Shown: positions 616 to 49,272, numbered from the stretch's first letter. The stretch is DNA of 64,000 nt from an uncultured Candidatus Saccharibacteria bacterium (GCA_964577565.1 CAZNZL010000001.1:14566-78565); one strand, 5' to 3'. The notes: generated from the sequence alone by a model not told the origin. A program made the numbers and translations.

Positions 616-685
616 ACCCGCCAAGTAAGGTACAATATACCCCCAGAGTGGGACGGTCTTATAAGTTAGGGAAGAATTGAGGATA

Positions 686-4596: not shown

Positions 4597-4656
4597 GCGG
4601 TTATCAGCCAGTACACTAAAGGGTATCGACATCATTAAACATATAGGAGAAGATGC

Positions 4657-5052
4657 ATGAACCCCAACGAAAAAGATATAAATGATCCAGCCGTGAATGT
4701 GCCGGTAGAGCCAGTTACTACTGATAGCCTAAGTCAACCACCAACCGAAACAGATACCCTTGGTGCCACACAGGTAGCGTCAGCCGAACAGCCGCTGGCA
4801 GCCCCCAACTCCGATGCTGTTAATGCGCCAACTCCTTCTAATGAAGGTAATTCAAGTGTAAATACGCCACCGACAACCCAAGGTAATACTGAGGTAACTC
4901 CAACGCCAGCTGATCTGCCTACAACACCGCTTGGCGGCAGCTCAATGCCGGCATCAGCCTCAGGTGCAAAATCAAAAAGCATTCTCGGAATCACTATTGT
5001 AGTACTTGGTGTACTGGTATTGCTTGTCGTGCTCGGTATGATGCTTGCTTAG
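4657..5052 (+). CDS. hypothetical Pro/Thr/Ser-rich protein with a C-terminal transmembrane anchor
   Basis: AGGAG lies 8 nt upstream of the ATG. The body is low-complexity P/T/S/N-rich and ends in a hydrophobic helix (ILGITIVVLGVLVLLVVLGMMLA). No family recognised. Confidence 0.5.
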   Translation: MNPNEKDINDPAVNVPVEPVTTDSLSQPPTETDTLGATQVASAEQPLAAPNSDAVNAPTPSNEGNSSVNTPPTTQGNTEVTPTPADLPTTPLGGSSMPASASGAKSKSILGITIVVLGVLVLLVVLGMMLA

Positions 5053-5080
5053 AAATTTAAACAAGCTTTCCGTTAGTTGC

Positions 5081-5086
5081 TATAAT
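5081..5086 (+). promoter_or_regulatory. -10 box TATAAT (preceded by TGC) 7 nt upstream of the prfB ATG; predicts a leaderless mRNA
   Basis: The sequence reads gttgcTATAATcagacctATG. There is no room for a Shine-Dalgarno sequence between the -10 box and the ATG. Confidence 0.55.
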
Positions 5087-5093
5087 CAGACCT

Positions 5094-6179
5094 ATGTCTG
5101 AGAATACTGGCACTATTAACGCTCTGTTTGAGGAAATTACGAATGCGTATCAACGTCTTGATATAGCGACCCTTAAAGTGAAATTGGCAACATTAGAACG
5201 CGCAACCGAAGAGCAGTCTTTTTGGAATGATTCGCTGTCGGCGCAAGAGACAATGAAGCAAATCGCAGACCTTAGAGGCCGCGTGGAGCCTTGGGAGGAG
5301 CTGCGCCAGGCTATAGTTGAGCTGAAAGAACTAGATGGGCTGGGTGATGCAAGTTTGAATAATGAAATAGCAGCGCAACTTACGCAAATTACTAAGGAGT
5401 TTCAAGCGCGCAAGAGAGATTTATTGTTTTCGGGGCCGTATGATGACCATGGTGCTATACTGAGCATTCATGCCGGAGCGGGAGGAACTGATGCTCAGGA
5501 TTGGGCACAAATGCTGCTTCGAATGTACGTACGGTGGGCTGAAGCAGAAGGCGGCAGGCCAACTTTAGTAGACCAATCAGCGGGTGAAGAAGCAGGCATA
5601 AAGAGTGTCACGCTCCAGATTGATACTTCTTTAGCGTATGGCAAGCTAAAAAGTGAGCACGGAGTTCATCGTTTAGTTCGACTTAGTCCTTTTAATGCAG
5701 ACAATTTGCGGCAGACGAGTTTTGCCAAAGTAGATGTTTTGCCTAAAATTGACAGCCCTGACGAGGTTAAGCTTGAAGATAAAGATCTTAAAGTTGATGT
5801 TTATCGGGCGGGCGGGCACGGCGGTCAATCCGTGAACACTACTGATTCGGCTGTTCGGGTAACGCACATACCGACTGGCATTACCGTTAGTATTCAAAAC
5901 GAGCGCTCACAGCTACAAAATAAAGAGATGGCGCTAACTATCCTTCGTTCGCGGTTAGCCCAACTACAACTAGAGCAACACCAAAGCCACCTCAGTCAGC
6001 TAAAGGGACCAAACCAGTCAGCTGAGTGGGGCAACCAAATTAGAAGCTATGTCTTACACCCCTATAAACAAGTTAAGGATCTTCGTACGCGTTACGAGGT
6101 CTCAGATCCAGATGATGTTCTCAATGGTAACCTCAACGGTTTTATAAATGCTTATTTAAATCACACCATGCACAGTTAA
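5094..6179 (+). CDS. prfB: peptide chain release factor 2, encoded in one uninterrupted frame
   Basis: Contains the SPF tripeptide (RLSPFNA) that marks RF2 and the GGQ motif (GGHGGQSVNTTDSAVR). 361 aa with no internal in-frame stop or +1 frameshift site. Confidence 0.95.
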   Translation: MSENTGTINALFEEITNAYQRLDIATLKVKLATLERATEEQSFWNDSLSAQETMKQIADLRGRVEPWEELRQAIVELKELDGLGDASLNNEIAAQLTQITKEFQARKRDLLFSGPYDDHGAILSIHAGAGGTDAQDWAQMLLRMYVRWAEAEGGRPTLVDQSAGEEAGIKSVTLQIDTSLAYGKLKSEHGVHRLVRLSPFNADNLRQTSFAKVDVLPKIDSPDEVKLEDKDLKVDVYRAGGHGGQSVNTTDSAVRVTHIPTGITVSIQNERSQLQNKEMALTILRSRLAQLQLEQHQSHLSQLKGPNQSAEWGNQIRSYVLHPYKQVKDLRTRYEVSDPDDVLNGNLNGFINAYLNHTMHS

Positions 6180-10302: not shown

Positions 10303-11520
10303 ATGGAGGAAAAAGAAAAAATCAGCACGTCCTTTAACAGGGCTCCAAAAAAGCAGCCTAAACTCACTAAAGTTATTGCAATAATTTCGGCTTTTGGACT
10401 GGTCTTTTTAGCTGGCATAGGGGTTGGTAACGGGCAAATATCATTTAGCGGGAACCAGTCGCGCCAAACTGCAGGCTTGCCACCAAATTTGTCGTATAGC
10501 TCTGTTGAAAAAGTCTACGACCTTCTTCGTAAGCAGTATGATGGTACGTTAGATGAAGCTAAGCTGCTCGATGGCTTGAAGAGTGGGCTGGTTGAAGCGG
10601 CAGGGGACCCGTATACAGAGTATTTGACCGCTGAGCAAGCTAGAGAGTTTGACGAGGAGCTAAACGGTACATTTAGCGGGATTGGTGCCGAGCTGGGCAA
10701 AGATGGCCAAAATATTGTAATTGTGGCCCCAATTAAGGGTTTTCCAGCAGAAAAGGCAGGCTTAAAGGCGCGTGACGTTGTTATTGAGATTAATGAAGAA
10801 ACCGCTCATGGTTTAAGCGTCAGTGAGGCGGTTCAAAAAATCCGTGGCGAAGCGGGCACGCAAGTAAAATTGAAAGTTTTGCGCAACAATAGTGAGACAC
10901 TTGATTTTACCATTACCAGAGATAACATTAGCATTCCGAGTGTCGAGTCTAGTATTGAGGGAGGAATCGGATATTTAAAAATCAGTCGCTTTTCTGACGA
11001 CACTGCCGCACTTTCGCGTCAAGCAGCAGAAAGTTTCAAACAAGCTGGGGTTAAGGCTGTTATTCTTGATGTTCGGGGTAATCCTGGCGGGTTGCTAGAT
11101 TCAGCAGTCAGCGTTTCGAGTTTATGGCTTACGGGCTCTCAAAAGGTATTAGAAGAAAAGCGCGACGGAATTGTTATAAAAACATATTACGCGCGAGACA
11201 ACCCGGTGCTCCAGCTTATACCAACAGTGGTAATGATTGATGGTGGTAGCGCAAGCGCAAGCGAAATTGTAGCGGGTGCACTAAAAGATAACGGCGCGGC
11301 TACACTTTTGGGTGATAAATCATTTGGTAAGGGGAGTGTGCAGTCTATTGAGCGCTTACCCGACGGGTCTGCGCTTAAGGTTACGATTGCTCGCTGGTTT
11401 ACGCCAAAGGGGCGCAATATTGATAAAGAAGGCATCGAGCCAGATAAAAAAGTTGAACAAACAAATAGTTCAATTTCTGACGTTCAATTGGATGCCGCAA
11501 AGCGTGAGCTACAAAAATAA
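10303..11520 (+). CDS. ctpA: S41 family C-terminal processing peptidase with PDZ domain
   Basis: N-terminal TM, a PDZ region (GIGAELGKDGQNIVIVAPIKGFPAEKAGLKARDVVIEIN), and S41 motifs (DVRGNPGGLLDSAV, GGSASASEIVAGALKD, FGKGSVQ). Confidence 0.9.
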   Translation: MEEKEKISTSFNRAPKKQPKLTKVIAIISAFGLVFLAGIGVGNGQISFSGNQSRQTAGLPPNLSYSSVEKVYDLLRKQYDGTLDEAKLLDGLKSGLVEAAGDPYTEYLTAEQAREFDEELNGTFSGIGAELGKDGQNIVIVAPIKGFPAEKAGLKARDVVIEINEETAHGLSVSEAVQKIRGEAGTQVKLKVLRNNSETLDFTITRDNISIPSVESSIEGGIGYLKISRFSDDTAALSRQAAESFKQAGVKAVILDVRGNPGGLLDSAVSVSSLWLTGSQKVLEEKRDGIVIKTYYARDNPVLQLIPTVVMIDGGSASASEIVAGALKDNGAATLLGDKSFGKGSVQSIERLPDGSALKVTIARWFTPKGRNIDKEGIEPDKKVEQTNSSISDVQLDAAKRELQK

Positions 11521-11586
11521 CCCCTTTATGGCATTTTGTTATTGTGGTACTATCGATGTCGTATATAAGTTTACGGGGGATGAATT

Positions 11587-13227
11587 GTGGCGCTGAGCAA
11601 ACAGCGAACTAAGTATATTTTTGTAACAGGTGGTGTGCTTTCTGGACTTGGGAAGGGTATTTCTGCCGCCTCAATTGGTAATCTGCTAAAAGCACGCGGG
11701 CTTACCGTAAATATCCAAAAATGCGACCCATATCTTAATGTTGATGCCGGGCTGTTAAACCCACGTGAGCATGGGGAATGCTTTGTAACCCATGATGGCG
11801 CAGAAACAGATCTGGACCTTGGTCATTACGAGCGTTTTCTTGACCAAGAAATTGACAGCGCAAGTTCGTTAATGAGCGGGCGAGTTTTACTGAAAGTCAT
11901 TCAAGACGAACGGGCTGGCAAATATGAAGGAGATGACGTTCAGATTATTCCTCATTTTACCTCGGCTATTCAGCGGTTTATTACTGATGCGGCCAAAGGC
12001 TACGATGTTCATATCGTTGAAATTGGTGGAACCGTCGGCGACTATGAATCGCTTAGTTTTATTGAGGCAATTCGCGAGCTCGGCATTAATGTTGGCCTTG
12101 AAAATTGTCTATACGTGCACGTAGTTTATCTGCCATATTTAGGTGCAAGCCAAGAGACAAAAACAAAACCTGCCCAAAATTCAGTGAGAGAACTTCGGGG
12201 CCTCGGAATCACACCTGATATTCTTATTGCCAGAAGCGAGCGGCCAGCTAATGCAGGCGTAAAAAATAAACTAAGCTTATTTTCGGGCGTTTCTAACGAT
12301 GCCATAGCGTTATTACCTAATGCTTCGACTATTTATCAGGTTCCATTAACGCTTGAAGACACTGATATCGCCGATGTAATTACTAAAAAATTACATCTAA
12401 AAACCAAGAAGCCAGATCTTAAGCAATGGCGACAGGTGGTTAAAAAGGCAACGACAAATCATAAACGTAAACTTACGGTTGGCTTGGTTGCAAAGTATAT
12501 GGATAATACCGATACCTATATTTCAGTTTTTGAAGCGTTGCGTGCAGCCTCATGGTTTACCGATACAAAACTTAAAATTAAATGGATAGACGCAGAAAAG
12601 CTAAAGAAAACCCGCGATGTTGAGCGAGCGTTTAAGGACGTAAGCGGCATCGTGGTGCCTGGTGGTTTTGGCACGCGTGGGCTCGAAGGCAAGATCTTAG
12701 CCGCTCGGTATGCCCTTAGTAATAAAATTCCGTACCTGGGGTTGTGTTTAGGTATGCAGATGGCAGTCATTGCAGCGGCCCGTAACGCTGGTTATAAAAA
12801 AGCCACAACGATAGAGTTAGACCCAAAAAGTGATATGCGCGTGATTGATATTATGGGTGATCAGATCGGTAAAGAAAGTACTGGTGGCACTATGCGGCTC
12901 GGTGATTACCCATGCAAGCTAGAAAAGGGCAGTGTGGCAGCCAAGCTTTATAAAGCAGATGCGATTGTAGAACGGCATCGGCACCGCTGCGAGGCTAATA
13001 ACGCCTATCGCGATCAATACTCAGCATGGGGTATTAAAGCATCGGGTACATCACCTGACGGTACGTTAGTAGAGATAATCGAAGCAACCGATCATCCATT
13101 TTTTGTTGCCAGTCAGTTTCATCCTGAGTTTAAATCACGTCCGCATAAGCCACATCCACTCTTTGGTGGTTTTGTGAAGGCTTGTGCAGACCGCCCAAGT
13201 ATTGCGACAACCAACAAAGTAGGGTAG
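11587..13227 (+). CDS. pyrG: CTP synthase
   Basis: 546 aa with a GTG start preceded by GGGGGA. The N-terminus is the canonical KYIFVTGGVLSGLGKGI. The C-terminal glutamine amidotransferase domain carries LGLCLGMQ and a HRHRCE segment. Confidence 0.95.
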   Translation: MALSKQRTKYIFVTGGVLSGLGKGISAASIGNLLKARGLTVNIQKCDPYLNVDAGLLNPREHGECFVTHDGAETDLDLGHYERFLDQEIDSASSLMSGRVLLKVIQDERAGKYEGDDVQIIPHFTSAIQRFITDAAKGYDVHIVEIGGTVGDYESLSFIEAIRELGINVGLENCLYVHVVYLPYLGASQETKTKPAQNSVRELRGLGITPDILIARSERPANAGVKNKLSLFSGVSNDAIALLPNASTIYQVPLTLEDTDIADVITKKLHLKTKKPDLKQWRQVVKKATTNHKRKLTVGLVAKYMDNTDTYISVFEALRAASWFTDTKLKIKWIDAEKLKKTRDVERAFKDVSGIVVPGGFGTRGLEGKILAARYALSNKIPYLGLCLGMQMAVIAAARNAGYKKATTIELDPKSDMRVIDIMGDQIGKESTGGTMRLGDYPCKLEKGSVAAKLYKADAIVERHRHRCEANNAYRDQYSAWGIKASGTSPDGTLVEIIEATDHPFFVASQFHPEFKSRPHKPHPLFGGFVKACADRPSIATTNKVG

Positions 13228-37733: not shown

Positions 37734-38805
37734 GTTAAAAAAACACGACGCTCAAGCGGATATTTGTGTCGTGACCGATAACAATGCATGGTTATCGTCA
37801 TTACAGAACTCAGCCGATATCTCTCACGTTACGGTCATTTCGGCCGGTAAGCTGCGACGTTATCCTAACCAATCATGGCTACAAAAAATCACCGATATCA
37901 AAACAATAAGCCTGAATCTTCGTGATGCATTTCGTACGTTTCGTGGCTGTTGGCAGGCGTTGAGAGCCATCGGTCGCAGCAACCCAGATATTATCTTTAT
38001 AAAGGGTGGTTTTGTAGGGGTGCCGGTTGGTGTAGCGGCGCATATAAAACGAGTACCGTTTATAACCCATGACTCTGATACCAAACCGGGTTTAGCTAAC
38101 AAAATTATTGGCCGGTGGGCAGCGGTTCATGCTGTCGGTATGCCAAGCCAGTTCTACACCTATCCTAAGCAAAAAACGGTTCATGTTGGCATTCCGCTTA
38201 CCAAAAACTATAAACATGTCTCAGATAAGCTTAAATTAGCGTACAGGCGAGATCTTGAGCTGCCCGCAAGGGCACACGTTGTTGCGGTAACGGGTGGTAG
38301 CCAGGGTGCTGCTCGTATTAATAAAATTGTAAAATTAGTTCTTAAAGAGCTTACCGCCAACGAAGAGACATACTTATTGCACCAAACAGGGAATCAGACC
38401 AACGATTTACCCTCAGTGTCCAGCCAATATCGGCCGTTTGCCTATCGCGATGATCTTTATAAAGTTACGGGTGCGGCCGATGTGGTTATAGCAAGGGCAG
38501 GGGCGAGCACATTAGCAGAGCTTGCCACGCAAGAAAAGGCGGTAATTGTTATTCCGAGCCCCTTTTTAGCAAGTGGACATCAGCTTGAAAACGCTAAACA
38601 ACTGCAAGAAAAAGAAGCCGTGATTATGCTGGACGAGACAAAGTTACTAAATAATCCGTTCGCGTTACTTAATACTGTGCAGCAATTACTAAACGATACA
38701 AGCCTACGCAAGCGATTGAGTAGAAACTTGCGATCATTGTACCTACCTGATTCAGCAGCACGTATCGCCGAGCTTATTATTAAAACAGGTGTTAAACCTC
38801 AATGA
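37666..38805 (+). CDS. murG: UDP-GlcNAc:lipid I N-acetylglucosaminyltransferase MurG
   Basis: MKILLVGGGTGGHITPLLAVA at the N-terminus and the C-terminal GASTLAEL motif. It overlaps the ftsW 3' end by 68 nt. Confidence 0.9.
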   Translation: MKILLVGGGTGGHITPLLAVAHELKKHDAQADICVVTDNNAWLSSLQNSADISHVTVISAGKLRRYPNQSWLQKITDIKTISLNLRDAFRTFRGCWQALRAIGRSNPDIIFIKGGFVGVPVGVAAHIKRVPFITHDSDTKPGLANKIIGRWAAVHAVGMPSQFYTYPKQKTVHVGIPLTKNYKHVSDKLKLAYRRDLELPARAHVVAVTGGSQGAARINKIVKLVLKELTANEETYLLHQTGNQTNDLPSVSSQYRPFAYRDDLYKVTGAADVVIARAGASTLAELATQEKAVIVIPSPFLASGHQLENAKQLQEKEAVIMLDETKLLNNPFALLNTVQQLLNDTSLRKRLSRNLRSLYLPDSAARIAELIIKTGVKPQ

Positions 38806-39719
38806 GTATATTTGGGCAAAAATCTAGCCGGCAAAGACAACGCAATCGGCAGACGCCTGATGCCCAAAGCGCTGTTTATTCGTACTATCAACGGCGGTCT
38901 GCTCGTAACGATGCGGTCGGCCGAGATCCAGAAGCTATCGAGTCTCAAAAACGTAAAAAGCCGCGCGCTATCCAGCACATACCATCGCTTATTTTACTGG
39001 TAGCCATACTGGTAAGTATGTTTTATGTATCAACGATTGACCCAAGGGTTAAAGTTAATCAAATAGACCAGCCCTCCAGTTCAGCTGTGCTCAATTTACG
39101 CAATGATGGCATCTACCAAGCGGCTGCTCAGCATTTTATAGAAAAATCATTAGTTAACCGTTCAAAGTTTTTAATTGATAGCGATGGATTACGGGCAGAT
39201 TTACAAAGGCAGTTTCCTGAGCTGGCTGCCGTAACTGTGACGTTACCAATTATGGGACGGCGCCCCGTGATAAGCATTCAAACTACCAAACCGGCTTTTA
39301 TTTTGGCCTCAGGAACCCAGTCGGTTTTAGTGGGAAACAATGGTGTAGCTCTAGTCGATGTACGCGACGTCGACCATAAAGAGCGTTTAAACCTTAAAAC
39401 AGTGCAAGACGAATCAGGGCTTGCAATCGAGCCAGGTAAAGCTGCGCTGCCCAAAGAACAAGCGCTCTTTATTGCCTCGGTTGTCGAGCAGCTAGAAAGC
39501 CAGCATATACCAATTGAACGCCTTACAATTCCTCGTAGTCCATATGATCTTCATGTGCGCATTAAAGACAGGCCGTACTTTGTAAAGTTTAATGTCCTTG
39601 AAGACCCTTTGCAGCAGTCGGGGGCATTCGTTGCTTTGCAGCAAAAGCTTGAGGCAGAGCAGGGGGAGCCTAAAGAATATATCGACGTAAGGGTAGGGGA
39701 AAGAGTGTTTTATCGCTAG
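38802..39719 (+). CDS. ftsQ: FtsQ/DivIB-like cell division protein (TM helix plus POTRA)
   Basis: A basic N-terminus, one TM helix (IPSLILLVAILVSMFYV), and a POTRA-like segment (LRADLQRQFPELAAVTVTLPIMGRRPVISI). It follows murG. Confidence 0.6.
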   Translation: MSIFGQKSSRQRQRNRQTPDAQSAVYSYYQRRSARNDAVGRDPEAIESQKRKKPRAIQHIPSLILLVAILVSMFYVSTIDPRVKVNQIDQPSSSAVLNLRNDGIYQAAAQHFIEKSLVNRSKFLIDSDGLRADLQRQFPELAAVTVTLPIMGRRPVISIQTTKPAFILASGTQSVLVGNNGVALVDVRDVDHKERLNLKTVQDESGLAIEPGKAALPKEQALFIASVVEQLESQHIPIERLTIPRSPYDLHVRIKDRPYFVKFNVLEDPLQQSGAFVALQQKLEAEQGEPKEYIDVRVGERVFYR

Positions 39720-40367
39720 CGTATTATTGCGTGGGCAGTGAGCCGCGTGTAAATTTAGAAAGCATACAACATAAACGTTTTGTGGCTGCACCCTCTCTGC
39801 TTTTCTCTCTTTTGAATGTTCGTAATTTGTTCATTGTGTGTTTGAATCACGCATTGAAAACTATATAAAACTATCAAAAACGTGAAAAATCAAATAGTAT
39901 GCGTGAAAATAGCAGGGCACGAGCAAAAACATATAAAACATAACAAAAATAGTAAAATGCAAATAATGTTGTGGAAAACTTTGCAAAAAGCACAAAAAAC
40001 GACATAGATACCGTTTAAGAGCATGCAGTAATAAATTGTTAACTAAGCATAGATAAATAGGCTATCAAACACGTTAAATGATAGAATTTGCGTACTACTC
40101 CCCTATATGAGATGTATCAATAGTCATCTATAAATACGTATACAAAGTCGCAAAATATACATTGTGCGACGTACTATCACTATGTCAGGGGGAAGCCCTA
40201 TTTTGCTGTTTTCAATCATTATTTCATTACTTATGATTCTGGTTTTGTATTTTTTGTGCCCTTTTGCTTTATGCAAGTTTACTGTGTTTTTAGTTGCCTT
40301 TATGTATTTACTCTAAACTCGTTGATTATTACAATGTTCGCAAAATGTTTATAAAAAATAAAACATT

Positions 40368-40916
40368 TTAAGCACGCATGTGATTGCGGCTGTGTGCATC
40401 AGAATGGCGCCGTAGCCGTGGTTCTATATCTACCATGACCCAATCATGGTCTTGTAGCTCGCCATCTTCCCTTGCCTGTCCGAATATAAACTGCTCATTT
40501 TTAAGATCTATAAGCATGCCGTTATGATTTCGGTACCGAAAAATACCAAAGCGCACATGAAATGGTAGGTGTTTGGGTCTAACATCTTTAACGAGGGCTA
40601 CTCGAGCAGCCAGAATGCGGCCCTCGGGCATCAGCGAGGGGTCATGATAGGGAGCAATATGAGGTCGATCTAACACCGGATAGAGCCCAAACTCGTGCTC
40701 GACAACTTTCGCGCCACAATAGTGGCGTACCTTATCAAATTCTTCTGCGGCAATACGTAGGCGCTCAGCAAGACTCACGTGTGGGTCAGCAACCGTTTGT
40801 ATGCGCCGCAATATACTTTCTTGATCTAAATCACCAACTTCTTTTAATTGTGGCTTGTGTAAGTAAATATGCTCTTCAGGATCAAACTCTGGCAAATCCA
40901 GCCCGTAAAATTTCAT
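40368..40916 (-). CDS. hypothetical protein, paralog A of an unrecognised family
   Basis: 182 aa. It shares GxxPxFxP at the N-terminus, CGAxVVxHxxGL in the middle and VDIEP near the C-terminus with the gene immediately upstream. The ATG lies 1 nt after that gene's stop (TGAAATG). Confidence 0.6.
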   Translation of the reverse strand: MKFYGLDLPEFDPEEHIYLHKPQLKEVGDLDQESILRRIQTVADPHVSLAERLRIAAEEFDKVRHYCGAKVVEHEFGLYPVLDRPHIAPYHDPSLMPEGRILAARVALVKDVRPKHLPFHVRFGIFRYRNHNGMLIDLKNEQFIFGQAREDGELQDHDWVMVDIEPRLRRHSDAHSRNHMRA

Positions 40917-40917
40917 T

Positions 40918-41502
40918 TCAGAAACCCCCGCCTTGCTTTTGGCGAAACACAGGCTCGATATCTACTAAAAACAGAGTAGGGTCAGTTTGGTCAGGATTAT
41001 TTGTATTACACCCATACATAAATTGAAACGGTTTCATATCATAAAGGTGGCTCCTGCGTATACGGTTCAAGGGGCGGTTGTAGCGTGCCAAACCTTCATG
41101 AACCTGTTCTTGTATACTCATTGGCAAACTCGCTGAAGAATCAATGCATCTAGGTACCGTAGCACCATCGATATAGTCTACTTTTGCAACCAGTCTTAAA
41201 CCGACATAATTGTTCCAAGGTAGTTTTGGGTACGTAGAACTGGCCAATCCCCAGGTGTGGGGTACAACTTCTGCGCCACACAAGTCTGCGCATTTTTGTA
41301 GTTCTTTGTCAGTAGTAGCGAGCGTGTGCTGAAGTGATTTTAATGAAAAATACGGCGGATAGACATCTATATCACGTACGAATTGCTTTGGTACTGATTC
41401 AGGACTTGATACCGTAGTACTCAGCTCTGCTGCAAGACACCGGCTTAATACCCTCGCATCGCCTGGTTCAAACCCGGGTATAGCACCGAGGCTCTTAACA
41501 AT
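40918..41502 (-). CDS. hypothetical protein, paralog B of the same family, with no canonical start codon
   Basis: The frame is open from 41529 down to the stop at 40918. It aligns with paralog A from about codon position 41499 onward (KSLGAIPGFEPGD vs KFYGLDLPEFDPEE). The first ATG, GTG or TTG in frame is the TTG at 41283. An ATT at 41502-41500 overlaps the upstream TAA. Confidence 0.45.
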   Translation of the reverse strand: MVKSLGAIPGFEPGDARVLSRCLAAELSTTVSSPESVPKQFVRDIDVYPPYFSLKSLQHTLATTDKELQKCADLCGAEVVPHTWGLASSTYPKLPWNNYVGLRLVAKVDYIDGATVPRCIDSSASLPMSIQEQVHEGLARYNRPLNRIRRSHLYDMKPFQFMYGCNTNNPDQTDPTLFLVDIEPVFRQKQGGGF

Positions 41503-42542
41503 TAGTCCTCGGCGAGGGCGTAGGTGGCTTTAGCAACGCGCTTAAATTGCTTTTTGCCTTGTAGGTTCAATAAAATCGTCGTTTCTTTAACGTAACGGGT
41601 TTTAAGTACGTTCTTAACAATCTCGTCACGGTGCAGTGGTTCACCTGCCTTTTTCAAGATGTCGGCAATAACGTCAGATACGGTGCCCTTTTTGTAACCC
41701 CATTCTTTCAGGGCGTAAATGCCTCGCCCTACGAGCACAAAGCGATCGTCTTTGATGAGCTCGTTGTGAATGGCTTGCGTCGTGACATCTTTACGCTTAA
41801 AACTAGAGGCTTTAATTTTTTTGGCAATGTCACTAAAGTGCATTTGCTTGCCGTTTTCTTTCAAAATAACGTAAATTTTGTCGCGAATGTTTTTAGGGTT
41901 AACGGTTGGCCACTTGGTAAGACCCCACACGCCGTTTAAGTGTGCCAGTTGTTTTGACAGGCTTGCTAAGGCCTCTGTCTTAGCCGCTTCGGCTTCGTTC
42001 ATGGCTTTGGCTACGTCTTCAATTGCTGAAGGCTTGCCAATCTCTTTAATGGCCTTAACAACCTTATCAACTTGTTGTGTTACTGCTTTATTGTCGCGAT
42101 ATGTCTTTTTAACAGCTACACCTTGGTGATAAAAGTCGTTTTCATCTACGGTAACAAGCTCAGGGCACAGCGCACATAAAAAAGCTACCCTTGCCTGGTT
42201 AACCTTGCTATCGTCTCCTGTCAGTTCTTTTGATAAAACACTAATTCGTTTGGCTTGGCCGGTTTTTTGTAGCATTTCAGTGACCGTTGCCTGTACCTCT
42301 TTTACATGAGGGACACTCCCCTGCTCTGCCTGGTTTTTAAGACGAGTGATAATAGCTTTTTCTAGCTGACGGACGCGCTCACGGGTAATGCCTAATAGTT
42401 CACCAATTTGCTCGAGCGTTTCTTTGCGGTCAAAAAGACCATAGCGCCTTGATACAATCTCGCGTTCACGCTCTTTCTCGATGGTTGCGAGTATGTCTTT
42501 GGTAATTTGTTCCACTGGTAACGTGTTAGTTTCGGTAGTCAT
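41502..42542 (-). CDS. sigma-70 region 4-like plus HARE-HTH domain DNA-binding protein
   Basis: The N-terminal part reads RYGLFDRKETLEQIGELLGITRERVRQLEKAIITRLK, a sigma region 4 HTH. The C-terminal part reads MHFSDIAKKIK...IHNELIKDDRFVLVGRGIYALKEWGY, a HARE-HTH-like pattern as in the RNA polymerase delta subunit N-domain. Confidence 0.65.
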   Translation of the reverse strand: MTTETNTLPVEQITKDILATIEKEREREIVSRRYGLFDRKETLEQIGELLGITRERVRQLEKAIITRLKNQAEQGSVPHVKEVQATVTEMLQKTGQAKRISVLSKELTGDDSKVNQARVAFLCALCPELVTVDENDFYHQGVAVKKTYRDNKAVTQQVDKVVKAIKEIGKPSAIEDVAKAMNEAEAAKTEALASLSKQLAHLNGVWGLTKWPTVNPKNIRDKIYVILKENGKQMHFSDIAKKIKASSFKRKDVTTQAIHNELIKDDRFVLVGRGIYALKEWGYKKGTVSDVIADILKKAGEPLHRDEIVKNVLKTRYVKETTILLNLQGKKQFKRVAKATYALAED

Positions 42543-42631
42543 TACACTTCTCTACTATCCTATTTAATATAATGTACATATAAATTATAAACTAATAACT
42601 ATAAAAGTCAAGAGTTTTATTACTATGACTT

Positions 42632-42640
42632 ATTATAGCA
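42632..42640 (-). promoter_or_regulatory. TGCTATAAT extended -10 element on the minus strand, about 90 nt upstream of the sigma/HARE-HTH gene
   Basis: The plus strand reads attatagca, which is TGCTATAAT on the minus strand. This matches the -10 consensus seen across the window. Confidence 0.45.
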
Positions 42641-42779
42641 CTAAATAGACATTTATGCGTACTGTTGAAATAACAATACTATTACTTAATAGAGGTGCAA
42701 AAGATAAAAATATGTAGTCTAATTTACTACTTCATGATACAAAATATTTATTATTCAATAATGTATCATTAAGATCAGC

Positions 42780-43238
42780 TTAATTTTCAGAATCGATTAT
42801 CTGAAATTCACCATTCTTGCCATAACTATTTGGTTCGAAGAATTCGGGGTACATTTCGTCTTTGACACCTTTTATCTCTCGAGCTCGCTGAATGGCTGCT
42901 CGCATCTGTTCTAATTCTTTGGCTTTTTCATCTATTTCTGCTAACTCTGGCCGTAATTTACGATCCGACATACCCCTTAAATCATCTGGAATCCCATACT
43001 CTTCACCCGTAAAAGTTGTAGTATCCATATCCCTTGTTGACGGAGAAGGAATACCCGCGCGATGCAACGCATCCTGTCCAAACTGTTGTTCATAAGTTGC
43101 ATCCCCATCAGGACCTATATCAAAGCCTTTTCCAGATGCTGTTAGTTTAGGAACATTATGTAGGCCCCTTACTTCAGGCTCTTGGTGAGGGTCAATGAGT
43201 TCTCCTCTTGCTTCAAAATCATCATCAAATCCTGTCAT
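42780..43238 (-). CDS. hypothetical acidic protein
   Basis: 152 aa, rich in D/E, with no TM helix and no family recognised. TATAAA on the minus strand (43251-43246) lies 7 nt upstream of the ATG, a leaderless-type geometry. Confidence 0.5.
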   Translation of the reverse strand: MTGFDDDFEARGELIDPHQEPEVRGLHNVPKLTASGKGFDIGPDGDATYEQQFGQDALHRAGIPSPSTRDMDTTTFTGEEYGIPDDLRGMSDRKLRPELAEIDEKAKELEQMRAAIQRAREIKGVKDEMYPEFFEPNSYGKNGEFQIIDSEN

Positions 43239-43938
43239 ATGAAAATTTATACCAGAAAAATAGAATAATTCAATACCTTTCTTTCGCCTGCATTAGAACG
43301 GGCTTCGACAATCTCTTTCTCGTATTACATAGAAATATTCCAATTTTCTCAGTAAAAAACCCAGCCTTGTTCTCTTTTGTTTCGGCAAATTTATTCCCAT
43401 TTTCTGTCCGGCCGGACAAGTTTTGTGAATACTTATTCTTTCACTCGCTTGCTAACACAAGCTATCAGCGACCCACTTTTCTCAGTAGCAAGAAAAGATG
43501 GGGCAAAAGTGCCACTGGCAACTGAAAAACAATGATGTTCACTCACTTGTCTGGCATCCGGATTCTACGTAACGACCCGCCAGCTGGCGGGGTCGCCCGT
43601 CAGTAGCCGGGTGAGCCTCGAATCACGGTATACCAGACTACGTTCATTCTTTTCAGTTTTTCAGAGCCAGATAAGCTTAAAGCAATATGTGGCTTGGTTT
43701 GCTCCTGGTACAAGGTGCGTCAAAAATACAATTATAGTCTGAGGACTTCCCGGCAGTTGCCGGGCGACCGTTAGGGAGTTGTCCGAAGCATTGTATTTAT
43801 TGACAAGCACCTTGCCAAGAGTAAACCATTGCCACGAGGGGTTTTGCCTTCTTTTGACCCAGCTGCAAAAGGAGGTCGCCTACAGCTCACGGAGTGAGCG
43901 GGGCGAAATACTTATGATAATTCAAATACTTTTATTGT

Positions 43939-43993
43939 CTTCGCTTTCGTCCTTTTGGACTCATCAGCGTAAGTACACACTTACGGAGCGAAG
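43939..43993 (-). ncRNA. hammerhead self-cleaving ribozyme, type III topology
   Basis: The minus strand reads CUUCGCU-C-CGUAAG-UGUGUA-CUUACG-CUGAUGA-GUCC-AAAA-GGAC-GAA-AGCGAAG. The complete conserved core is present (CUGAUGA, GAA, the A15.1-U16.1 pair, C17). Stem I has 6 bp, stem II has 4 bp starting with a G-C pair, and the open stem III has 7 bp. Confidence 0.85.
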
Positions 43994-44094
43994 ATGACAA
44001 GAAGACAATAGTTTAGGAACAGAAGAAGTGGCAATGAGAGCCAAACGTCTGAGAAAACCCCAAACTACTCTCTGCTTGCCACCGTCGCTGGTGA

Positions 44095-44568
44095 TCAGTC
44101 GCCGCCAATGAACGAGTAGTCCGCGTCCATCACGCCGCCCTGACGAGTCATCTCGTTCCGGCAGATGGCGATGATGGCAGAAGCCATCCACTCGGCGATC
44201 ATCTCATCAAAGACAGCTTGGACGCCGCTGAAAGCGACGATCAGCCCGTCACGGATGACGCTGCCGCCCCACTTGACGTCGCCGTCTTGCAGCAGGTGCG
44301 GTGCACGCTGCTGAACCTCGCGGCTCGACATCTTCGTTCGCTTGGAGAGCTGCGCCTTGGCATGGGCGATGCGCTTGTACTTGTCGTCATCGCGCGTGCC
44401 ATTGGTCTCGATGGTCTCCGTGAAGAGGACACTGCCATCGCGAGGGTGGAGCACCACGATGGTTCCGGCTAGCTTGTTGGTCACGCCGTCATTACGAGCG
44501 GCATTGACCCCTTGGCGAACCATACACCATGCAAGGTCGCAGATTTCCTCGGAAATTCCTCGGTACAT
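44095..44568 (-). CDS. GC-rich ORF, possible GlcG/HbpS-like (DUF336) protein
   Basis: WGGSVIRDGLIVAFSGVQAVFDEMIAEW resembles the DUF336 core GGxPxxxDGxxIGAxGVSG..xxDxxxA. Hand counts of three 60-nt lines give 38, 32 and 40 G+C, against 25 of 60 in a topA line. Both strands carry long shadow ORFs, as expected for high GC. I prefer the ATG at 44568 (MYRGISEE) over the TTG at 44592. Confidence 0.45.
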   Translation of the reverse strand: MYRGISEEICDLAWCMVRQGVNAARNDGVTNKLAGTIVVLHPRDGSVLFTETIETNGTRDDDKYKRIAHAKAQLSKRTKMSSREVQQRAPHLLQDGDVKWGGSVIRDGLIVAFSGVQAVFDEMIAEWMASAIIAICRNEMTRQGGVMDADYSFIGGD

Positions 44569-44718
44569 GCTTGTCTCATCTCTGTGACTCAACTGTGTTA
44601 ACAGTGAGACAAAAAGCTTAAAAGTTAAGCCCTTTATCTCACCGCTAACAATAAACTATGTCTGCTTGTCAAATAACAGGGGTGGAATAGATATAATTAC
44701 TCAACACCCTATACTTAT

Positions 44719-44748
44719 ATTATAGCATAGATAGTAGTTAAATGTCAA
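44719..44748 (-). promoter_or_regulatory. sigma-70 promoter on the minus strand (TTGACA, 18 nt spacer, TATAAT, with TGC before the -10) upstream of the GC-rich ORF
   Basis: The minus strand reads TTGACAtttaactactatctatgcTATAAT. Confidence 0.55.
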
Positions 44749-44776
44749 TAGCCATTCAGGGGTGAGAGGTACCAAC

Positions 44777-47065
44777 TTATTTCTTGGTGGCTCTTTTTGG
44801 GAATCTGCGGCGTTTGGCTGGCGCGTCAGCTAACAGTTTTTTGGCTTGGTCTTCTGTTACCTTCTCTGGCTTGACGTCATCAGGTATTTTGGCATTCTTT
44901 TTACCGTCGGTAATATACGGGCCATAGGGGCCGTTTAATACTTTAATGGTGCCAAAATCAGCGATGTTGCGCTTTTTATCTTTGGCAAGTTTCTCTTTGT
45001 ACAGTTTACGTGCCGCTTCTTCTTTGATGGTAAACGGATCATGCGGTTCTTTTAACGAAACAAACGTTTTGTCTACCTTAATGTATGGCCCAAAACGCCC
45101 AATATCAGCCGTAATCTCTTGACCGTCAGCAGTTTTACCGACCACGCGAGGTAACTTAAACATTTTTAGGGCTTCTTCAAGCGTGACTTCTTTAATGTCG
45201 CGACCGGCGGGCATGGGCGCAAATTGTGGTTTTTCTTCATCCTCTACGTCGCCGATTTGCAGCATCGGGCCATACTTGCCGTAGCGTGCAATAACCGGCT
45301 TGCCGGTTTTAGGGTCCTTGCCGAGTTTGCGGCTTTGCGAGGCAACATCACGCGGTACGTCTTCTGCCTTCTTAATTAACGGATGAAAATCTTTATAAAA
45401 TTTAGCGAGCATAGCCTGCCACTTAATTTTGCCGTCTGCAATCTTGTCAAACTCATCTTCAACCTCGGCCGTAAAGCCATAATCTAAGATATCTTCAAAG
45501 TTCTTTACTAAAAAGTCGGTCACCTGTTCTGCTAAAAAGGTCGGCATTAATTTATTGCGGTCAGCGCCGTAGGTTTGCGTATCTTGTTTTTCAGTTACCT
45601 TGTTTTTGGCGAGCGTTAATACTGTGACTTCGCGTTCTTCGCCCTCGGTGTCGCGCTTTTCTACGTACCCGCGGTCTTGGATGGTGCTGATGGTAGGAGC
45701 GTACGTACTTGGCCGGCCAATGCCAAGCTCCTCTAGCTTTTTAACTAGACTGGCCTCTGAATAACGCGCTGGTGCTTTTTTAAACTGCTCGGTTGAGATA
45801 ACTTGGCTAAGATCAACTGTTTGGCCTTCTGTGAGTTCTGGTAGCAGGCTGTCTTTTTGCCCGACGCTGTAAACTTTTATAAAGCCATCAAACTGTAAAA
45901 TTTCACCTTTCGCCAAGAAAGTTTCTTTGCGGGTACTGGGCGTAATAATGGCTTCAGTACGTTCGACTTTGGCGGCGGCCATTTGGCTGGCGACGGCTCG
46001 CTGCCAGATCAAACGGTATAACTTTTTGCTCTGCTCGGTCTTACCTGCACTGGTGGTGCTAATACTCGTGGGCCGAATGGCTTCGTGGGCTTCTTGGGCG
46101 CCCTTTGATTTGGTGGCGAATTTTCGGTTTTCTAGATACTTATCGCCAAACGTCTTTTTAACGTAATCAGTTATTGCCGTAATGGCGGTCTGCGACAGAT
46201 TGGTGCTATCGGTACGCATATAAGTAATGTGGCCGCTTTCATATAGTTCTTGGGCGAGGCGCATGGTTTGCCGTACGCTGTAACCGAGCCGTTGTGAGGC
46301 GATTTGTTGTAAGGTGCTGGTGGTAAACGGTGCGGAAGGGTTACGCGAGGCTGGCTTGTTTGTCACGCTGCTAACGGTAAAATCGGCCTTAACAATATCT
46401 TCTAAAAACTTTTTTGCCTTTTTGTTGTCGTCAAAGCGGACGCTTAACTCGGCATCAAAGGTGCCTTTGGCTGCCTTAAAGGTGCCTATCGTCTTAAAGA
46501 AGGTTTCTTTGGCAAAGTTTTCGATCTCGCGCTCGCGCTCAACAATTAAACGCACAGCTACGGATTGTACACGGCCGGCACTAAGGCCGGTTTTGACTTT
46601 CTTCCAGAGTACCGGGCTAAGCTCATACCCTACTAAGCGATCCAGCACGCGGCGAGCTTGCTGTGCGTCGACCAGTTTAATATCAACGTTACGCGGCTTG
46701 GCCACGGCGGCCTCAATAGCTGGTTTGGTAATCTCGTGAAAGACAATGCGCTTGGTTTTTTTAGCGTCAAGATTTAGGGCTGAGCATAAATGCCACGCAA
46801 TGGCTTCGCCTTCGCGGTCTTCATCGCTGGCGAGCCAGACAGTTTTGCCTTTAGCGGCTTTTTTAAGCTCATTCACCACCTTTTTCTTATCTTCAGAAAT
46901 TTCGTAGGTTGGCTCAAAATTTTTCTCAATATCAACCGAGATGCCTTTACTTGGAAGGTCTCTAATGTGCCCAAAACTACTCTTAACGGTAAAGTCTTTG
47001 CCTAAATAATTGGCAATGGTCTTAGCTTTGGCTGGGCTCTCAACAATGACTAAGTTTTTGCTCAT
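44777..47065 (-). CDS. topA: DNA topoisomerase I
   Basis: The Toprim N-terminus is present (LVIVESPAKAKTIANYLG), along with the active-site region ITYMRTDS and a C-terminal Lys-rich tail. 762 aa. Confidence 0.95.
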   Translation of the reverse strand: MSKNLVIVESPAKAKTIANYLGKDFTVKSSFGHIRDLPSKGISVDIEKNFEPTYEISEDKKKVVNELKKAAKGKTVWLASDEDREGEAIAWHLCSALNLDAKKTKRIVFHEITKPAIEAAVAKPRNVDIKLVDAQQARRVLDRLVGYELSPVLWKKVKTGLSAGRVQSVAVRLIVEREREIENFAKETFFKTIGTFKAAKGTFDAELSVRFDDNKKAKKFLEDIVKADFTVSSVTNKPASRNPSAPFTTSTLQQIASQRLGYSVRQTMRLAQELYESGHITYMRTDSTNLSQTAITAITDYVKKTFGDKYLENRKFATKSKGAQEAHEAIRPTSISTTSAGKTEQSKKLYRLIWQRAVASQMAAAKVERTEAIITPSTRKETFLAKGEILQFDGFIKVYSVGQKDSLLPELTEGQTVDLSQVISTEQFKKAPARYSEASLVKKLEELGIGRPSTYAPTISTIQDRGYVEKRDTEGEEREVTVLTLAKNKVTEKQDTQTYGADRNKLMPTFLAEQVTDFLVKNFEDILDYGFTAEVEDEFDKIADGKIKWQAMLAKFYKDFHPLIKKAEDVPRDVASQSRKLGKDPKTGKPVIARYGKYGPMLQIGDVEDEEKPQFAPMPAGRDIKEVTLEEALKMFKLPRVVGKTADGQEITADIGRFGPYIKVDKTFVSLKEPHDPFTIKEEAARKLYKEKLAKDKKRNIADFGTIKVLNGPYGPYITDGKKNAKIPDDVKPEKVTEDQAKKLLADAPAKRRRFPKRATKK

Positions 47066-48065: not shown

Positions 48066-48088
48066 GACTTACAAAATCGTTAAATAGT

Positions 48089-48117
48089 ATTGACATAATG
48101 TAACATATTTGCTAAAA
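48089..48117 (+). promoter_or_regulatory. consensus sigma-70 promoter (TTGACA, 17 nt spacer, TAAAAT, with TGC before the -10) driving the ORF-free structured region
   Basis: The sequence reads TTGACAtaatgtaacatatttgcTAAAAT. The predicted transcription start is near 48124. Confidence 0.6.
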
Positions 48118-48123
48118 TAGCAA

Positions 48124-48570
48124 CCCGTAAGTCCTTGTTAGGATTTTACGTACCTTATACCCCCATTCTAACATCCGTATTTACGGATATCGTTAGATTG
48201 TTTTAGAGCGCGCTTATTCGAGTTGTTACCCTCCACTTGGTGAGCATAAGCCGGCCTAGCCGGTAACGCTCTAAAACAGACTAACCCCTTTAACTCCCCC
48301 ACAAAAAGGCAACTTTTTGCGGGGGCCCCTGTTAATCAGGGTTCCCAATCAATGGTGAATATCAAGTATGGCTCATAGAGCCGGCGCAAGTCTTTATGGA
48401 GTTTTGGACATTGACGCTTCACCGGGGTGGGTTGAAGGGTGTATTGGTTCCCCATAAATCAAAAGCTAACGCTGAGATTTATGGGGACCCCTAGTTTTAA
48501 GGCTTGAGCGTGTGTTTGAGCCCTGAAATCGGCTTACAGCGGTGCCCACCCCCTCTGTAGGCCGTTTTTT
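48124..48570 (+). ncRNA. candidate structured ncRNA of unknown class (about 450 nt)
   Basis: A promoter lies upstream and an intrinsic terminator at the 3' end. No ORF of 60 aa or more exists in any frame. Seven local helices include two perfect 11-bp stems (48199-48209/48266-48276 and 48449-48459/48475-48485) and a 13-position stem capped by a GCAA tetraloop (48295-48324). There are many G-runs and C-runs with long-range complementarity. Confidence 0.5.
48530..48570 (+). terminator. rho-independent terminator closing the candidate ncRNA
   Basis: GGCTTACAG at 48530-48538 pairs with CTGTAGGCC at 48554-48562 (9 bp including one G-T pair). A GTTTTTTG tract follows. Confidence 0.6.
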
Positions 48571-48696
48571 GTGCCCAACCACTTTCAGTGGTCTCAGCTC
48601 TTCGTATATGGCAACAAGTTTCCATCAGAAGATGCCCTTGCAGACAGTCACCGACTGTCTTCACCCTCTAGAGGCTCTTTTAGTAGAATGATAGTT

Positions 48697-49272
48697 ATGA
48701 AAATCACTGAACAATACGAATTTACAGAACTTACACCTGAAGCAGTAGATTGCTGTGTTGAACATGGAGCAGCGAATCTTTCTGGCTTTCTTTCAGAAGC
48801 CACGCTTAGATATATCAAAGAAAGAGGTTTTCCTGTTCGGCAAGAGGTTGCAGAGACGGTTGATGCAAAACTAACTAAATTAATGAGGGTTTTCGGTATC
48901 GGCGGCTTACCTAAGGTCAGTATAGAGCAAGCCTCGCTTGTGCAAATGGCAATTGAAACTATTCCGAGCTTCGATGATCCCGCACGTCTAGACTTTCATA
49001 CTGATAGTATTCAGCGCAACGGTGTATCCTTTTTGATACCTATAAGTGGCAGTTCAGCTCGGTTTGAATTTAGGGATATAGGTGAATACGAGCCAGAGGC
49101 TGTAACCTACATGCCAGGCGACATATTGTTACTGAGGCAATATATTGAAACCTATAACGGCAGGATCATTAGACGACCTCAAATAGAACATCGCGGTATA
49201 GCACCCAGCCCGCGAAGCATCTATACTGTAGACCTACACGATAAGCATTTGGTTACTGACTTTACAGTATAA
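48697..49272 (+). CDS. hypothetical protein, possible HxD...H (cupin/2OG-oxygenase-like) fold
   Basis: DFHTDS, then about 75 aa, then IEHRG. I prefer the ATG at 48697 (MKITEQYEF) because TAGAAT at 48684-48689 lies 7 nt upstream. The longer ORF from the GTG at 48571 would start inside the terminator. Confidence 0.45.
   Translation: MKITEQYEFTELTPEAVDCCVEHGAANLSGFLSEATLRYIKERGFPVRQEVAETVDAKLTKLMRVFGIGGLPKVSIEQASLVQMAIETIPSFDDPARLDFHTDSIQRNGVSFLIPISGSSARFEFRDIGEYEPEAVTYMPGDILLLRQYIETYNGRIIRRPQIEHRGIAPSPRSIYTVDLHDKHLVTDFTV

Follow-up and report, generated by a model that had tools for sequence, protein, structure and literature searches.

Hundreds of hammerhead ribozymes have been found in bacteria, many of them near integrases or prophages and some flanking single genes of changing identity such as ardA (Perreault et al., 2011; PMC3088659). 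The biological role of these bacterial ribozymes has been unclear since that 2011 report. Here we analyse 64,000 nucleotides (nt) from an uncultured Candidatus Saccharibacteria bacterium (GCA_964577565.1, CAZNZL010000001.1:14566-78565; hereafter the window, with a guanine plus cytosine (GC) content of 44.8% overall), in which a type III hammerhead lies 3′ to a solitary GC-rich gene, within the 5 kb (positions 39,720 to 44,776) between the dcw cluster and topA. This 5-kb interval is probably a mosaic of a conserved backbone and two variable slots, not one element, and the slot next to topA holds a single-gene cassette capped by the hammerhead. The cassette extends the known pattern of hammerheads beside single variable genes. 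It shares with the ribozymes reported earlier the canonical core, the intergenic position, short and inconstant neighbouring genes that include anti-defence genes (ardA in the earlier set, Tad4 in the present one), and the presumed processing of transcripts to single-gene length. It differs from them in the pairing of each gene with one type III hammerhead, invariably within the 3′ untranslated region (UTR), in its chromosomal housekeeping contexts on Saccharibacteria/Patescibacteria-type contigs rather than in prophages, in a conserved 14-nt 3′ box with a complementary 5′ box, a consensus promoter and cargo genes rich in GC at third codon positions (GC3), and in scores that fall under the gathering threshold of Rfam Hammerhead_3. 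In the literature we found no paper linking hammerheads to Saccharibacteria, Patescibacteria or the candidate phyla radiation (CPR).

Two further systems invite comparison. RAGATH motifs (RNAs associated with genes associated with twister and hammerhead) were reportedly described by Weinberg and colleagues in 2015 and 2017. One of them, RAGATH-10 (RF03147), follows the 5′ box and precedes the start codon of the cargo in two of the hammerhead cassettes retrieved here (L124, 1446-1527 on the minus strand, 69 bits; L149, 4561-4638 on the plus strand, 60.5 bits; loci are cited by such handles), so that these loci have been partly sampled by earlier motif searches. RAGATH-10 covers an optional leader module alone, and not the promoter, the 5′ and 3′ boxes or the hammerhead; its model finds no match in the window between 44500 and 44800 at E values up to 10. 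The 3′ arm of RAGATH-10 contains GAGGAG, which is Shine-Dalgarno-like and may gate translation in a subset of cassettes. Integron cassettes are similar in carrying diverse, mostly unknown small open reading frames (ORFs) with a conserved structured 3′ element, and in the variation of the cargo held in a slot. The cassettes described here are instead solitary rather than arrayed, each has its own promoter, and the 3′ element is an RNA fold with a ribozyme core. No integron integrase domain was found among the ORFs of the region with Pfam; attC models were not run.

The initial annotation, made from the sequence alone, had taken the interval for one accessory region and proposed that it might hold a regulator, two paralogous effectors and a ribozyme-processed transcript. 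Its inventory of the region held up well: a 648-bp AT-rich stretch after ftsQ (39720-40367, 30-36% GC, no ORF of at least 60 amino acids (aa)), two tandem minus-strand genes of an unrecognised family (paralogs with 29% identity, E=1e-9), a sigma-region-4/HARE-HTH gene (hereafter sigma/HARE; Pfam Sigma70_r4 1.5e-12, HARE-HTH 7.9e-10), a very AT-rich spacer (42543-42779, 237 bp, ~25% GC), an acidic hypothetical protein, a noncoding block with a type III hammerhead inside (43239-44094, 856 bp), and a foreign-looking gene of about 60% GC (44095-44592 on the minus strand, 59-61% GC against 44.8% for the window). The swings in composition are genuine as well, and have separate causes, conserved AT-rich promoter DNA on the one hand and a GC3-rich inserted gene on the other. 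The unity of the region did not survive comparison with five relatives (L004, L005, L006, L007 and L037; tblastn of the window proteins against each locus). In all five, mraY, ftsW, murG and the ftsQ-like gene follow one another and point towards an oppositely transcribed block in which sigma/HARE comes first, then topA and dprA; the ftsQ-position gene and this minus-strand block are convergent. The plus-strand dcw block ends at the ftsQ-position ORF with no ftsA or ftsZ next, as had been noted for the window, in all five relatives too. The sigma/HARE orthologs (62-78% identity) always lie between topA and ftsQ, and only two gaps vary: that from topA to sigma/HARE is 2.2 kb in the window and 0.27-1.1 kb in the relatives, and that from sigma/HARE to ftsQ is 1.78 kb against 0.86-1.3 kb. 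The accessory claim thus stands for two sub-slots that differ among relatives and fails for sigma/HARE, its promoters and part of the AT-rich DNA, which are conserved; most of the odd-looking 5 kb is conserved core DNA of the lineage.

A single horizontally acquired 5-kb island, in which the sigma/HARE regulator, two paralogous effectors and a ribozyme-processed transcript travel together, is accordingly very improbable and largely refuted by synteny. The genes do lie on one strand, their composition is heterogeneous, and the paralog family follows sigma/HARE genes in several genomes. Against this, sigma/HARE, its promoters and its position between topA and ftsQ are kept in the five relatives without the other parts, and the cassette occurs with its own promoter at unrelated loci that have neither sigma/HARE nor the paralogs. 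The features of a classical genomic island are also lacking at the region, as had been noted: there is no integrase or transposase among the ORFs, the nearest tRNA is at 58260, and direct flanking repeats are only of chance length. Nor is the entire block missing from relatives, among which only the two sub-slots vary. The hammerhead does not belong to a regulator-effector transcript, as had been suggested, but sits in a separate upstream cassette with its own promoter. This cassette (core at ~44748-43935 on the minus strand) is part of slot 2, a 2.05-kb insertion between the topA stop codon and the sigma/HARE promoters.

The hammerhead already called in the initial annotation is supported by its core and by covariation. 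The core contains CUGAUGA...GAAA, the A15.1-U16.1 pair, U16.1 and C17, which are the elements of a canonical catalytic core, framed by stems I (6 bp), II (4 bp) and III (6 bp or more); chance alone would produce the bare core pattern 0.01 times per window. Cleavage is predicted after the C at 43986, between 43986 and 43985. A covariance model, R1, was built from six genome-derived hammerhead sequences, in which 96% of positions are paired and 9 of 18 pairs are compensatory, whereas shifted-register controls reach ~40% with none compensatory. R1 matches all six sequences at 72-92 bits (the window hammerhead at 91.7 bits). Metagenomes were scanned with the pattern CTTGTC-N20-50-CTGAYGAGTCC-N3-5-GGACGAAA, which at least 120 contigs match, and R1 has 91 matches in the retrieved loci. 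In the 87 distinct sequences aligned from these the core is retained, and 96.4% of positions are paired (32-43% in shifted-register controls), with double changes in 15 of the 18 pairs and 349 compensatory changes in all. The copies in L037 and L005 show compensatory changes relative to the window. The L005 hammerhead (12124-12202) pairs U with U at 10.1/11.1, and its stem I loop is enlarged by a large insertion. The fold is well supported computationally, and the RNA presumably cleaves itself.

The platform around this ribozyme has a fixed order: sigma-70 promoter, 5′ stem-loop, 5′ box, structured leader, ORF, 3′ hairpin, 3′ box and hammerhead. In the window the promoter, TTGACA-18-TATAAT with an extended -10 TG (44748-44719), has a scan score of 12/12 and is followed by the 5′ hairpin (44709-44679), the 5′ box UUGACAAGCAGACA (44672-44659) and a long leader hairpin (44650-44596). 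The gene of the window's cassette (DUF336-like, see below) is preceded in five genomic contexts, the window and four others, by an invariant TTGACA-N17/18-TGnTATAAT promoter, the 5′ hairpin and TTGACAAGCAGACA, which is the reverse complement of the 14-mer at the 3′ end. This 3′ 14-mer, tgTCTGCTTGTCAT, of which the search pattern imposed only CTTGTC, is conserved. The layout is not tied to one gene. Fifty-two loci with unrelated cargo have in common the promoter, a hairpin with a UU bulge and GAG/CUC pairs, the sequence GTACT and the 5′ box, and a leader profile made from 51 other loci matches the window at 44752-44657 with an E value of 2.7e-10. The same profile has a weak match (E=0.002) elsewhere in the window, at 48086-48145 on the plus strand, upstream of dprA and before an ORF at 48571-49272; this is probably mere promoter similarity.

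The two boxes are complementary within loci. Of 109 loci, 72 contain, ahead of the hammerhead, a sequence complementary to their own 3′ box with no more than 2 mismatches in 12; in most of the 72 it is placed 400-1000 nt upstream and before the ORF, and ~7 such loci are estimated by chance. Complementarity of the variable part of the boxes is higher within loci (mean 4.54/8) than between loci (3.63), none of 5000 permutations being as high, and the atypical boxes of L089 and L183 match 8/8 within their own locus. When the predicted processed mRNA (44712 to 43986) of the window is folded, the centroid structure pairs the 5′ box region with the 3′ box over ~18 bp. The 5′ arm of the 3′ UTR hairpin (GGCAAGCAGAGAGUAGUUU) nearly repeats the 5′ box sequence and competes with it for the 3′ box.

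The same platform surrounds very different genes. Most of the 80 listed loci have an ORF of 50-414 aa on the strand of the ribozyme, with its end mostly 30-150 nt before the hammerhead, and 75 such ORFs fall into 57 clusters. Pfam matches among them are few: Tad4 five times, pentapeptide repeats, DUF4419, Rce1-like and Nfu_N. The cargo is richer in overall GC than its flanks in 49 of 57 loci (Wilcoxon p=1e-8), and the excess lies at third codon positions (GC3 0.68 against 0.53 in the flanks; 0.51 against 0.49 at the first and second positions). Cargo and site vary independently of the platform. In L005 the slot between topA and sigma/HARE holds an unrelated 168-aa ORF (11486-11992, 65% GC in a genome of 44.5%) followed by a hammerhead, and L037 and L130 have cassettes between dprA and topA, a slot that is empty in the window. 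One platform around dozens of unrelated genes, at different chromosomal sites, behaves as a modular accessory unit.

Some loci retrieved in the scan carry features of their own. Tad4, a phage-type Thoeris inhibitor, was found in 5 of 73 cargo ORFs tested (best E value 3.9e-19), and its carriers probably cluster as L098/L116/L117/L123/L126/L167. In L115 the hammerhead (4077-4141) lies directly beside a gene for a 503-aa serine recombinase (4229-5740, minus strand), which belongs to a 90% cluster of 184 members, one of them named from a Patescibacteria genome. L102 (Ga0184645_1062112) has weaker model matches at 324-415 (+), 647-715 (-), 1313-1404 (+) and 1636-1704 (-), with a spacing of 989 nt on each strand, and looks like a longer than unit-length assembly of a viroid-like or circular element of ~1 kb with ribozymes of both polarities; this element is distinct from the chromosomal cassettes.

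The cargo of the window encodes a protein with a GlcG/HbpS-like fold. Its sequence matches Pfam PF03928 (DUF336) at 17.3 bits, under the gathering threshold of 25, several of its homologs carry a precomputed PF03928 match, and PDB sequence searches gave no match. An AlphaFold (AF2) model based on a 57-sequence alignment has a mean predicted local distance difference test score (pLDDT) of 94.3, and Foldseek matches it with probability 1.0 to HbpS, Klebsiella ORFY (DUF336; 2a2l), PduO-C, EfgA, NahX and Ybr137w (E values 3.6e-5 to 1e-3, template modelling (TM) scores 0.5-0.6). The structure matches agree with the sub-threshold PF03928 match and place the protein as a divergent member of the small-ligand-binding DUF336/GlcG fold class. 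It thus has the same fold as HbpS, ORFY, PduO-C, EfgA and NahX, and differs from described members in a sequence under Pfam gathering and in a family tied to a ribozyme-bearing cassette. Among the four unknown proteins for which fold searches had been suggested, this is the one assignable to an established fold family; none of the four has a match in PADLOC, PHROGs or NCBIfam.

The gene itself is 59% GC, with a GC3 of 0.75 against 0.44 in the flanking ORFs of the window. There are 76 homologs with 45-76% identity, several of them source-named Saccharibacteria or Saccharimonadaceae and one Demequina. The contexts of six homologs show a solo gene each time, and each neighbourhood is different: after a Pyr_redox gene, beside a trehalase-like gene, between gatC and uvrB, between clpC and nusA, or between hpf and serS. 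In all of these contexts the homologs are 59-61% GC and the flanks 38-49%, and wherever downstream DNA was available in the six contexts a hammerhead follows ~90-180 nt after the stop codon. The R1 model found no hammerhead with the Demequina homolog.

These data bear on whether the cassettes move at all. Saccharibacteria genomes are often rearranged, and the genes could be old lineage genes or single acquisitions from high-GC actinobacteria that were moved by ordinary rearrangement, with the hammerhead and leader as conserved UTRs of a few gene families. The DUF336-like homolog of the actinobacterium Demequina, without a hammerhead, fits such a history, and the family identity of 45-76% gives no sign of recent transfer. 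We nevertheless consider it decidedly unlikely. One platform is found around 57 unrelated cargo clusters, shared slots hold different cargo (window, L005), the platform is found in other slots (L037, L130), and these slots are empty in close relatives. Furthermore, high GC3 across deep divergence points to an ongoing process rather than a single transfer.

The perfect complementarity of the boxes can also be read at the level of DNA, since each box contains a TTGACA hexamer and the boxes are perfect inverted repeats around the ORF that covary within loci. They could be inverted repeats for a recombinase encoded elsewhere, which inverts the cargo (phase variation) or excises and inserts it, and the hammerhead would be a mere neighbouring 3′-processing signal. 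In agreement with this, G-U mismatches between boxes are not in excess over A-C mismatches, as DNA repeats predict, the cassette of L115 abuts a large serine recombinase gene, and cargo varies between identical platforms. We regard this possibility as unlikely, because the promoter and the 5′ hairpin lie outside the repeats and yet are conserved together with them, the 3′ box abuts stem III of the hammerhead directly, most of the 80 listed loci showed no inverted cargo, and the surroundings of the window's cassette contain no recombinase.

Prophages, viroid-like elements and retro-elements are the usual homes of bacterial hammerheads, and the cassette might be a fragment of one of these. The presence of Tad4, a phage anti-Thoeris family, among the cargo is in line with this origin, as is the frequent location of bacterial hammerheads near integrases, prophages and single variable genes such as ardA (PMC3088659). 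The metagenome pattern, on the other hand, matches only 2 of 2.9 million IMG/VR contigs and none of the INPHARED phage records, the flanks are housekeeping genes (topA, gatCAB, uvrB, clpC, nusA, serS), and there are no PHROG matches, one hammerhead per unit and no reverse transcriptase. Such an origin is scarcely credible.

Several observations weigh against the reading of a ribozyme-capped cassette that spreads among these bacteria. At the level of the RNA, Rfam Hammerhead_3 (RF00008) scores the window hammerhead at 29.2 bits (E=0.003), below the gathering threshold of 48.5; the hammerhead of L149 is likewise below it, at 38.1 bits. We take this as a limit of annotation and not as counter to the fold, as the Rfam model was trained mainly on other lineages, and standard pipelines will miss these hammerheads because their scores fall under gathering. 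Indeed, at the gathering threshold Rfam finds only a tRNA in the whole window, and a permissive search of the region returns the sub-threshold hammerhead together with noise (group-II-D1D4-3 and miRNA models). The retrieval pattern fixed CTTGTC, stem II and part of the core, so that conservation of CTTGTC and of the stem II bases is circular. A clear 5′ box was not found in 37 of the 109 loci, the minimum free energy (MFE) fold of the window pairs the 3′ box with the local near-duplicate of the 5′ box in the 3′ UTR instead of the 5′ box itself, and the mismatches between boxes, 27 of G-U type and 25 of A-C type, leave RNA pairing and DNA pairing unseparated. At the level of spread, 8 of the 57 cargoes are not richer in GC than their flanks. 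The near-identical loci L117 and L118 are collinear, with no inversion or rearrangement, and neither excision or insertion junctions nor target duplications nor a dedicated recombinase were found. As for taxonomy, only one neighbouring protein cluster is named Patescibacteria and a few loci share Saccharibacteria proteins; protein matches for the metagenome loci, made against a small reference set, are mostly uninformative, and most loci are unplaced. Mobility is something we infer from the differing contexts and from filled versus empty slots, and spread across Saccharibacteria/Patescibacteria-type contigs is in part seen directly and in part presumed.

Together, these comparisons give good computational support to the cassette architecture, from which we infer cleavage, a panhandle and mobility as follows. 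The cassette would be transcribed from its own strong promoter. The hammerhead would then cut itself 107 nt past the stop codon and sever the mRNA from downstream RNA, which would leave a defined 3′ end with a 2′,3′-cyclic phosphate 8 nt past the 3′ box. Two partners would be open to the 3′ box, the nearby decoy within the 3′ UTR and the 5′ box; pairing with the latter would give a panhandle mRNA and could shield its ends or tune translation. The cassette would spread horizontally as an accessory module, with recombination through the conserved ends as the probable route. A more far-reaching proposal is possible but, taken as a whole, doubtful: that Patescibacteria hold a widespread, undescribed class of modular ribozyme-capped cassettes, a fixed platform swapped among genomes with interchangeable GC3-rich cargo that includes anti-defence proteins. 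Cleavage and box pairing would here yield an end-protected panhandle mRNA, possibly ligated into a circle, and the ends would act as homology arms for cassette swaps after natural transformation, where biased gene conversion could explain the high GC3. A still more speculative link is that the TTGACA-bearing boxes are bound by the neighbouring sigma-region-4/HARE-HTH protein.

Table 1. Features of the interval between the dcw cluster and topA and of its two border genes, in window coordinates
Feature	Coordinates	Strand	Remarks
ftsQ-position gene	38802..39719	+	last ORF of plus-strand dcw block; core backbone
Conserved noncoding element after ftsQ	40085..40212	.	blastn in L003-L007 and L037
Paralog B, 182 aa	40368..40916	-	fast-evolving family following sigma/HARE-HTH genes
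Paralog A, open frame of ~194 codons	40918..41502	-	no ATG, GTG or TTG before 41283
Sigma-70 region 4 + HARE-HTH (RNA polymerase delta-like) protein	41502..42542	-	Pfam; core syntenic gene
Tandem sigma-70 promoters and leader of sigma/HARE gene	42584..42727	-	blastn, alignment, promoter scan
Acidic 152-aa ORFan	42780..43238	-	uncertain as a real gene
Hairpin-rich noncoding DNA, ~700 nt	43239..43934	.	species-specific; promoter-like site 43818-43790 (-)
Type III hammerhead	43935..44001	-	core read from sequence, covariance model, covariation
3′ box UGUCUUCUUGUCAU, consensus tgTCTGCTTGTCAT	43994..44007	-	directly 5′ of stem III; 78-locus consensus
3′ UTR hairpin	44008..44094	-	MFE folds; arm conserved in L085, L086 and others
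Cargo gene, 157 aa from ATG 44568	44095..44568	-	DUF336/GlcG/HbpS-like; alternative TTG 44592
Cassette 5′ platform	44569..44748	-	promoter, 5′ hairpin, 5′ box, leader hairpin
topA	44777..47065	-	core backbone; orthologs 62-69% identical in Saccharibacteria metagenome-assembled genomes

The backbone of the interval (Table 1) includes the ftsQ-position gene, sigma/HARE and topA. Retrieval by TopA identifies the window as Saccharibacteria DNA, its best relatives being Saccharibacteria metagenome-assembled genomes at 62-69% TopA identity. The ftsQ-position ORF has homologs after murG in L005, L006, L007 and L037 (35-55% identity) and matches no Pfam family, FtsQ/POTRA included, at E values up to 0.01; because Pfam is silent and the place after murG is conserved, the name FtsQ is positional only. 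The sigma/HARE protein has 346 aa, with Sigma70_r4 at residues 24-69 and HARE-HTH at residues 223-281, and matches the RNA polymerase delta family TIGR04567 of NCBIfam at 43.7 bits (cut-off 42). It resembles RNA polymerase delta and sigma-70 region 4 proteins in combining a region-4 helix-turn-helix with a delta-type HARE-HTH, and departs from them in that Pfam and NCBIfam detect neither sigma region 2 nor region 3; it therefore falls short of a complete sigma factor. The gene belongs to the conserved core of the lineage and is no island regulator.

Slot 1, directly downstream of sigma/HARE, holds an optional partner from a family of 180-200-aa proteins, present as a tandem duplicate in the window. 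A word-indexed search with paralog B returned a single homolog (P0002), and a profile search of 1.84 billion representatives returned 340 cluster representatives, 142 of them below 1e-10 and all ~180-200 aa long; the family has no match in Pfam and no sequence match in the PDB. To judge from these sequence comparisons, it is a real, fast-evolving and unannotated family. The co-occurrence with sigma/HARE-HTH genes that had been proposed for checking is borne out, as all readable contexts of the family are directly downstream of a Sigma70_r4/HARE-HTH gene (twice in the window, in L003 and in L094/L095). The family is not found at this position in L004-L007. An ORF in slot 1 of L037 (13597-14238) is borderline (hhalign E=0.002, probability 13%) and could be no more than a very distant member, and L005:13445-14038 was rejected as a member on profile comparison. 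Slot 1 can hold other genes: in L003 (1447-4095) and L004 (13910-16501) it carries an 860-890-aa VirD4/TrwB-like ATPase (DUF8128 and coupling-protein domains of type IV secretion systems), which in L003 adjoins a member of the paralog family.

The N-terminus of paralog A aligns with that of the family, and its frame is open back to the sigma/HARE stop codon. A candidate ATT start overlaps the sigma/HARE TAA stop by 1 nt (TAATT, 41500-41504), and the genes called on Logan contigs L001 and L002 do not include paralog A. This arrangement suggests either an ATT start with termination-reinitiation coupling or a young pseudogene. The AlphaFold (AF2) model of paralog B (pLDDT 89.7) has no significant structural neighbour in the PDB or BFVD; its weak top matches are protein kinases (E values 0.14 in the PDB and 0.01 in BFVD, TM ~0.3). 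D137, Q142 and D163-I-E-P are invariant or near-invariant in the family. A minimal kinase-like fold, to go by the model, may be a lead for this family, not a result.

The AT-rich DNA on either side of these genes is conserved. The spacer upstream of sigma/HARE is 93% identical to L007 over 122 nt and ~82% identical to L005 and L006, which exceeds the conservation of the flanking proteins. It contains a promoter, P1, with TTGACT-16-TATAAT at 42611-42584 (scan score 11/12) and an upstream extended -10 element, TGCTATAAT, at ~42640-42632. Aligned across seven relatives, the spacer shows a tandem pair of sigma-70-type promoters in which TTGAC and TGCTA.AAT are invariant. The very AT-rich spacer is thus, as predicted from sequence, the conserved tandem-promoter region of the sigma/HARE gene. 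The stretch after ftsQ carries a conserved element as well, the core of which is a hairpin, GTCGCA-N12-TGCGAC (~40147-40171), with a nearly invariant stem and 12-nt loop. The element is kept in six Saccharibacteria relatives with genomes of 37 to 56% GC, and 27 of 27 bases of the hairpin are identical in L037, the relative with 56% GC. The alignments of this element show no covariation, and Rfam has no match. A second small hairpin and an AGGGGAG motif follow the main hairpin.

The remainder of slot 2 lies downstream of the hammerhead. The ~700 nt of hairpin-rich DNA have no similar sequence in any of 217 loci, fold with z-scores of -4.4 on the minus strand and -5.1 on the plus strand, and include a promoter-like site with a scan score of 10/12. 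The entire 856-nt noncoding block has a folding z-score of -8.8, and a single large structured RNA was considered for it. This reading is unsupported once the cassette UTRs are removed, because both strands fold about equally and nothing similar is found in the 217 loci. A decayed second cassette upstream of the acidic ORF was also considered and rejected, as neither the leader profile nor the hammerhead model has a match there. The acidic ORF has no homolog but itself among 5.8 billion proteins and no match in Pfam, NCBIfam, PHROGs or PADLOC. The ~700 nt and the acidic ORFan may be decayed or lineage-specific material.

For the biology of bacterial hammerheads, one class is now tied to a repeated architecture, in which a promoter, complementary boxes and the ribozyme surround diverse GC3-rich cargo, and its setting is the chromosomes of ultra-small epibiotic bacteria. 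The architecture provides a testable model for the ribozyme: it would form the 3′ end of the mRNA of accessory genes that move horizontally, and would close or insulate their transcripts. The cassettes also mark a pool of candidate accessory genes, including Tad4-like anti-defence genes, in organisms where most genes lack a known function.

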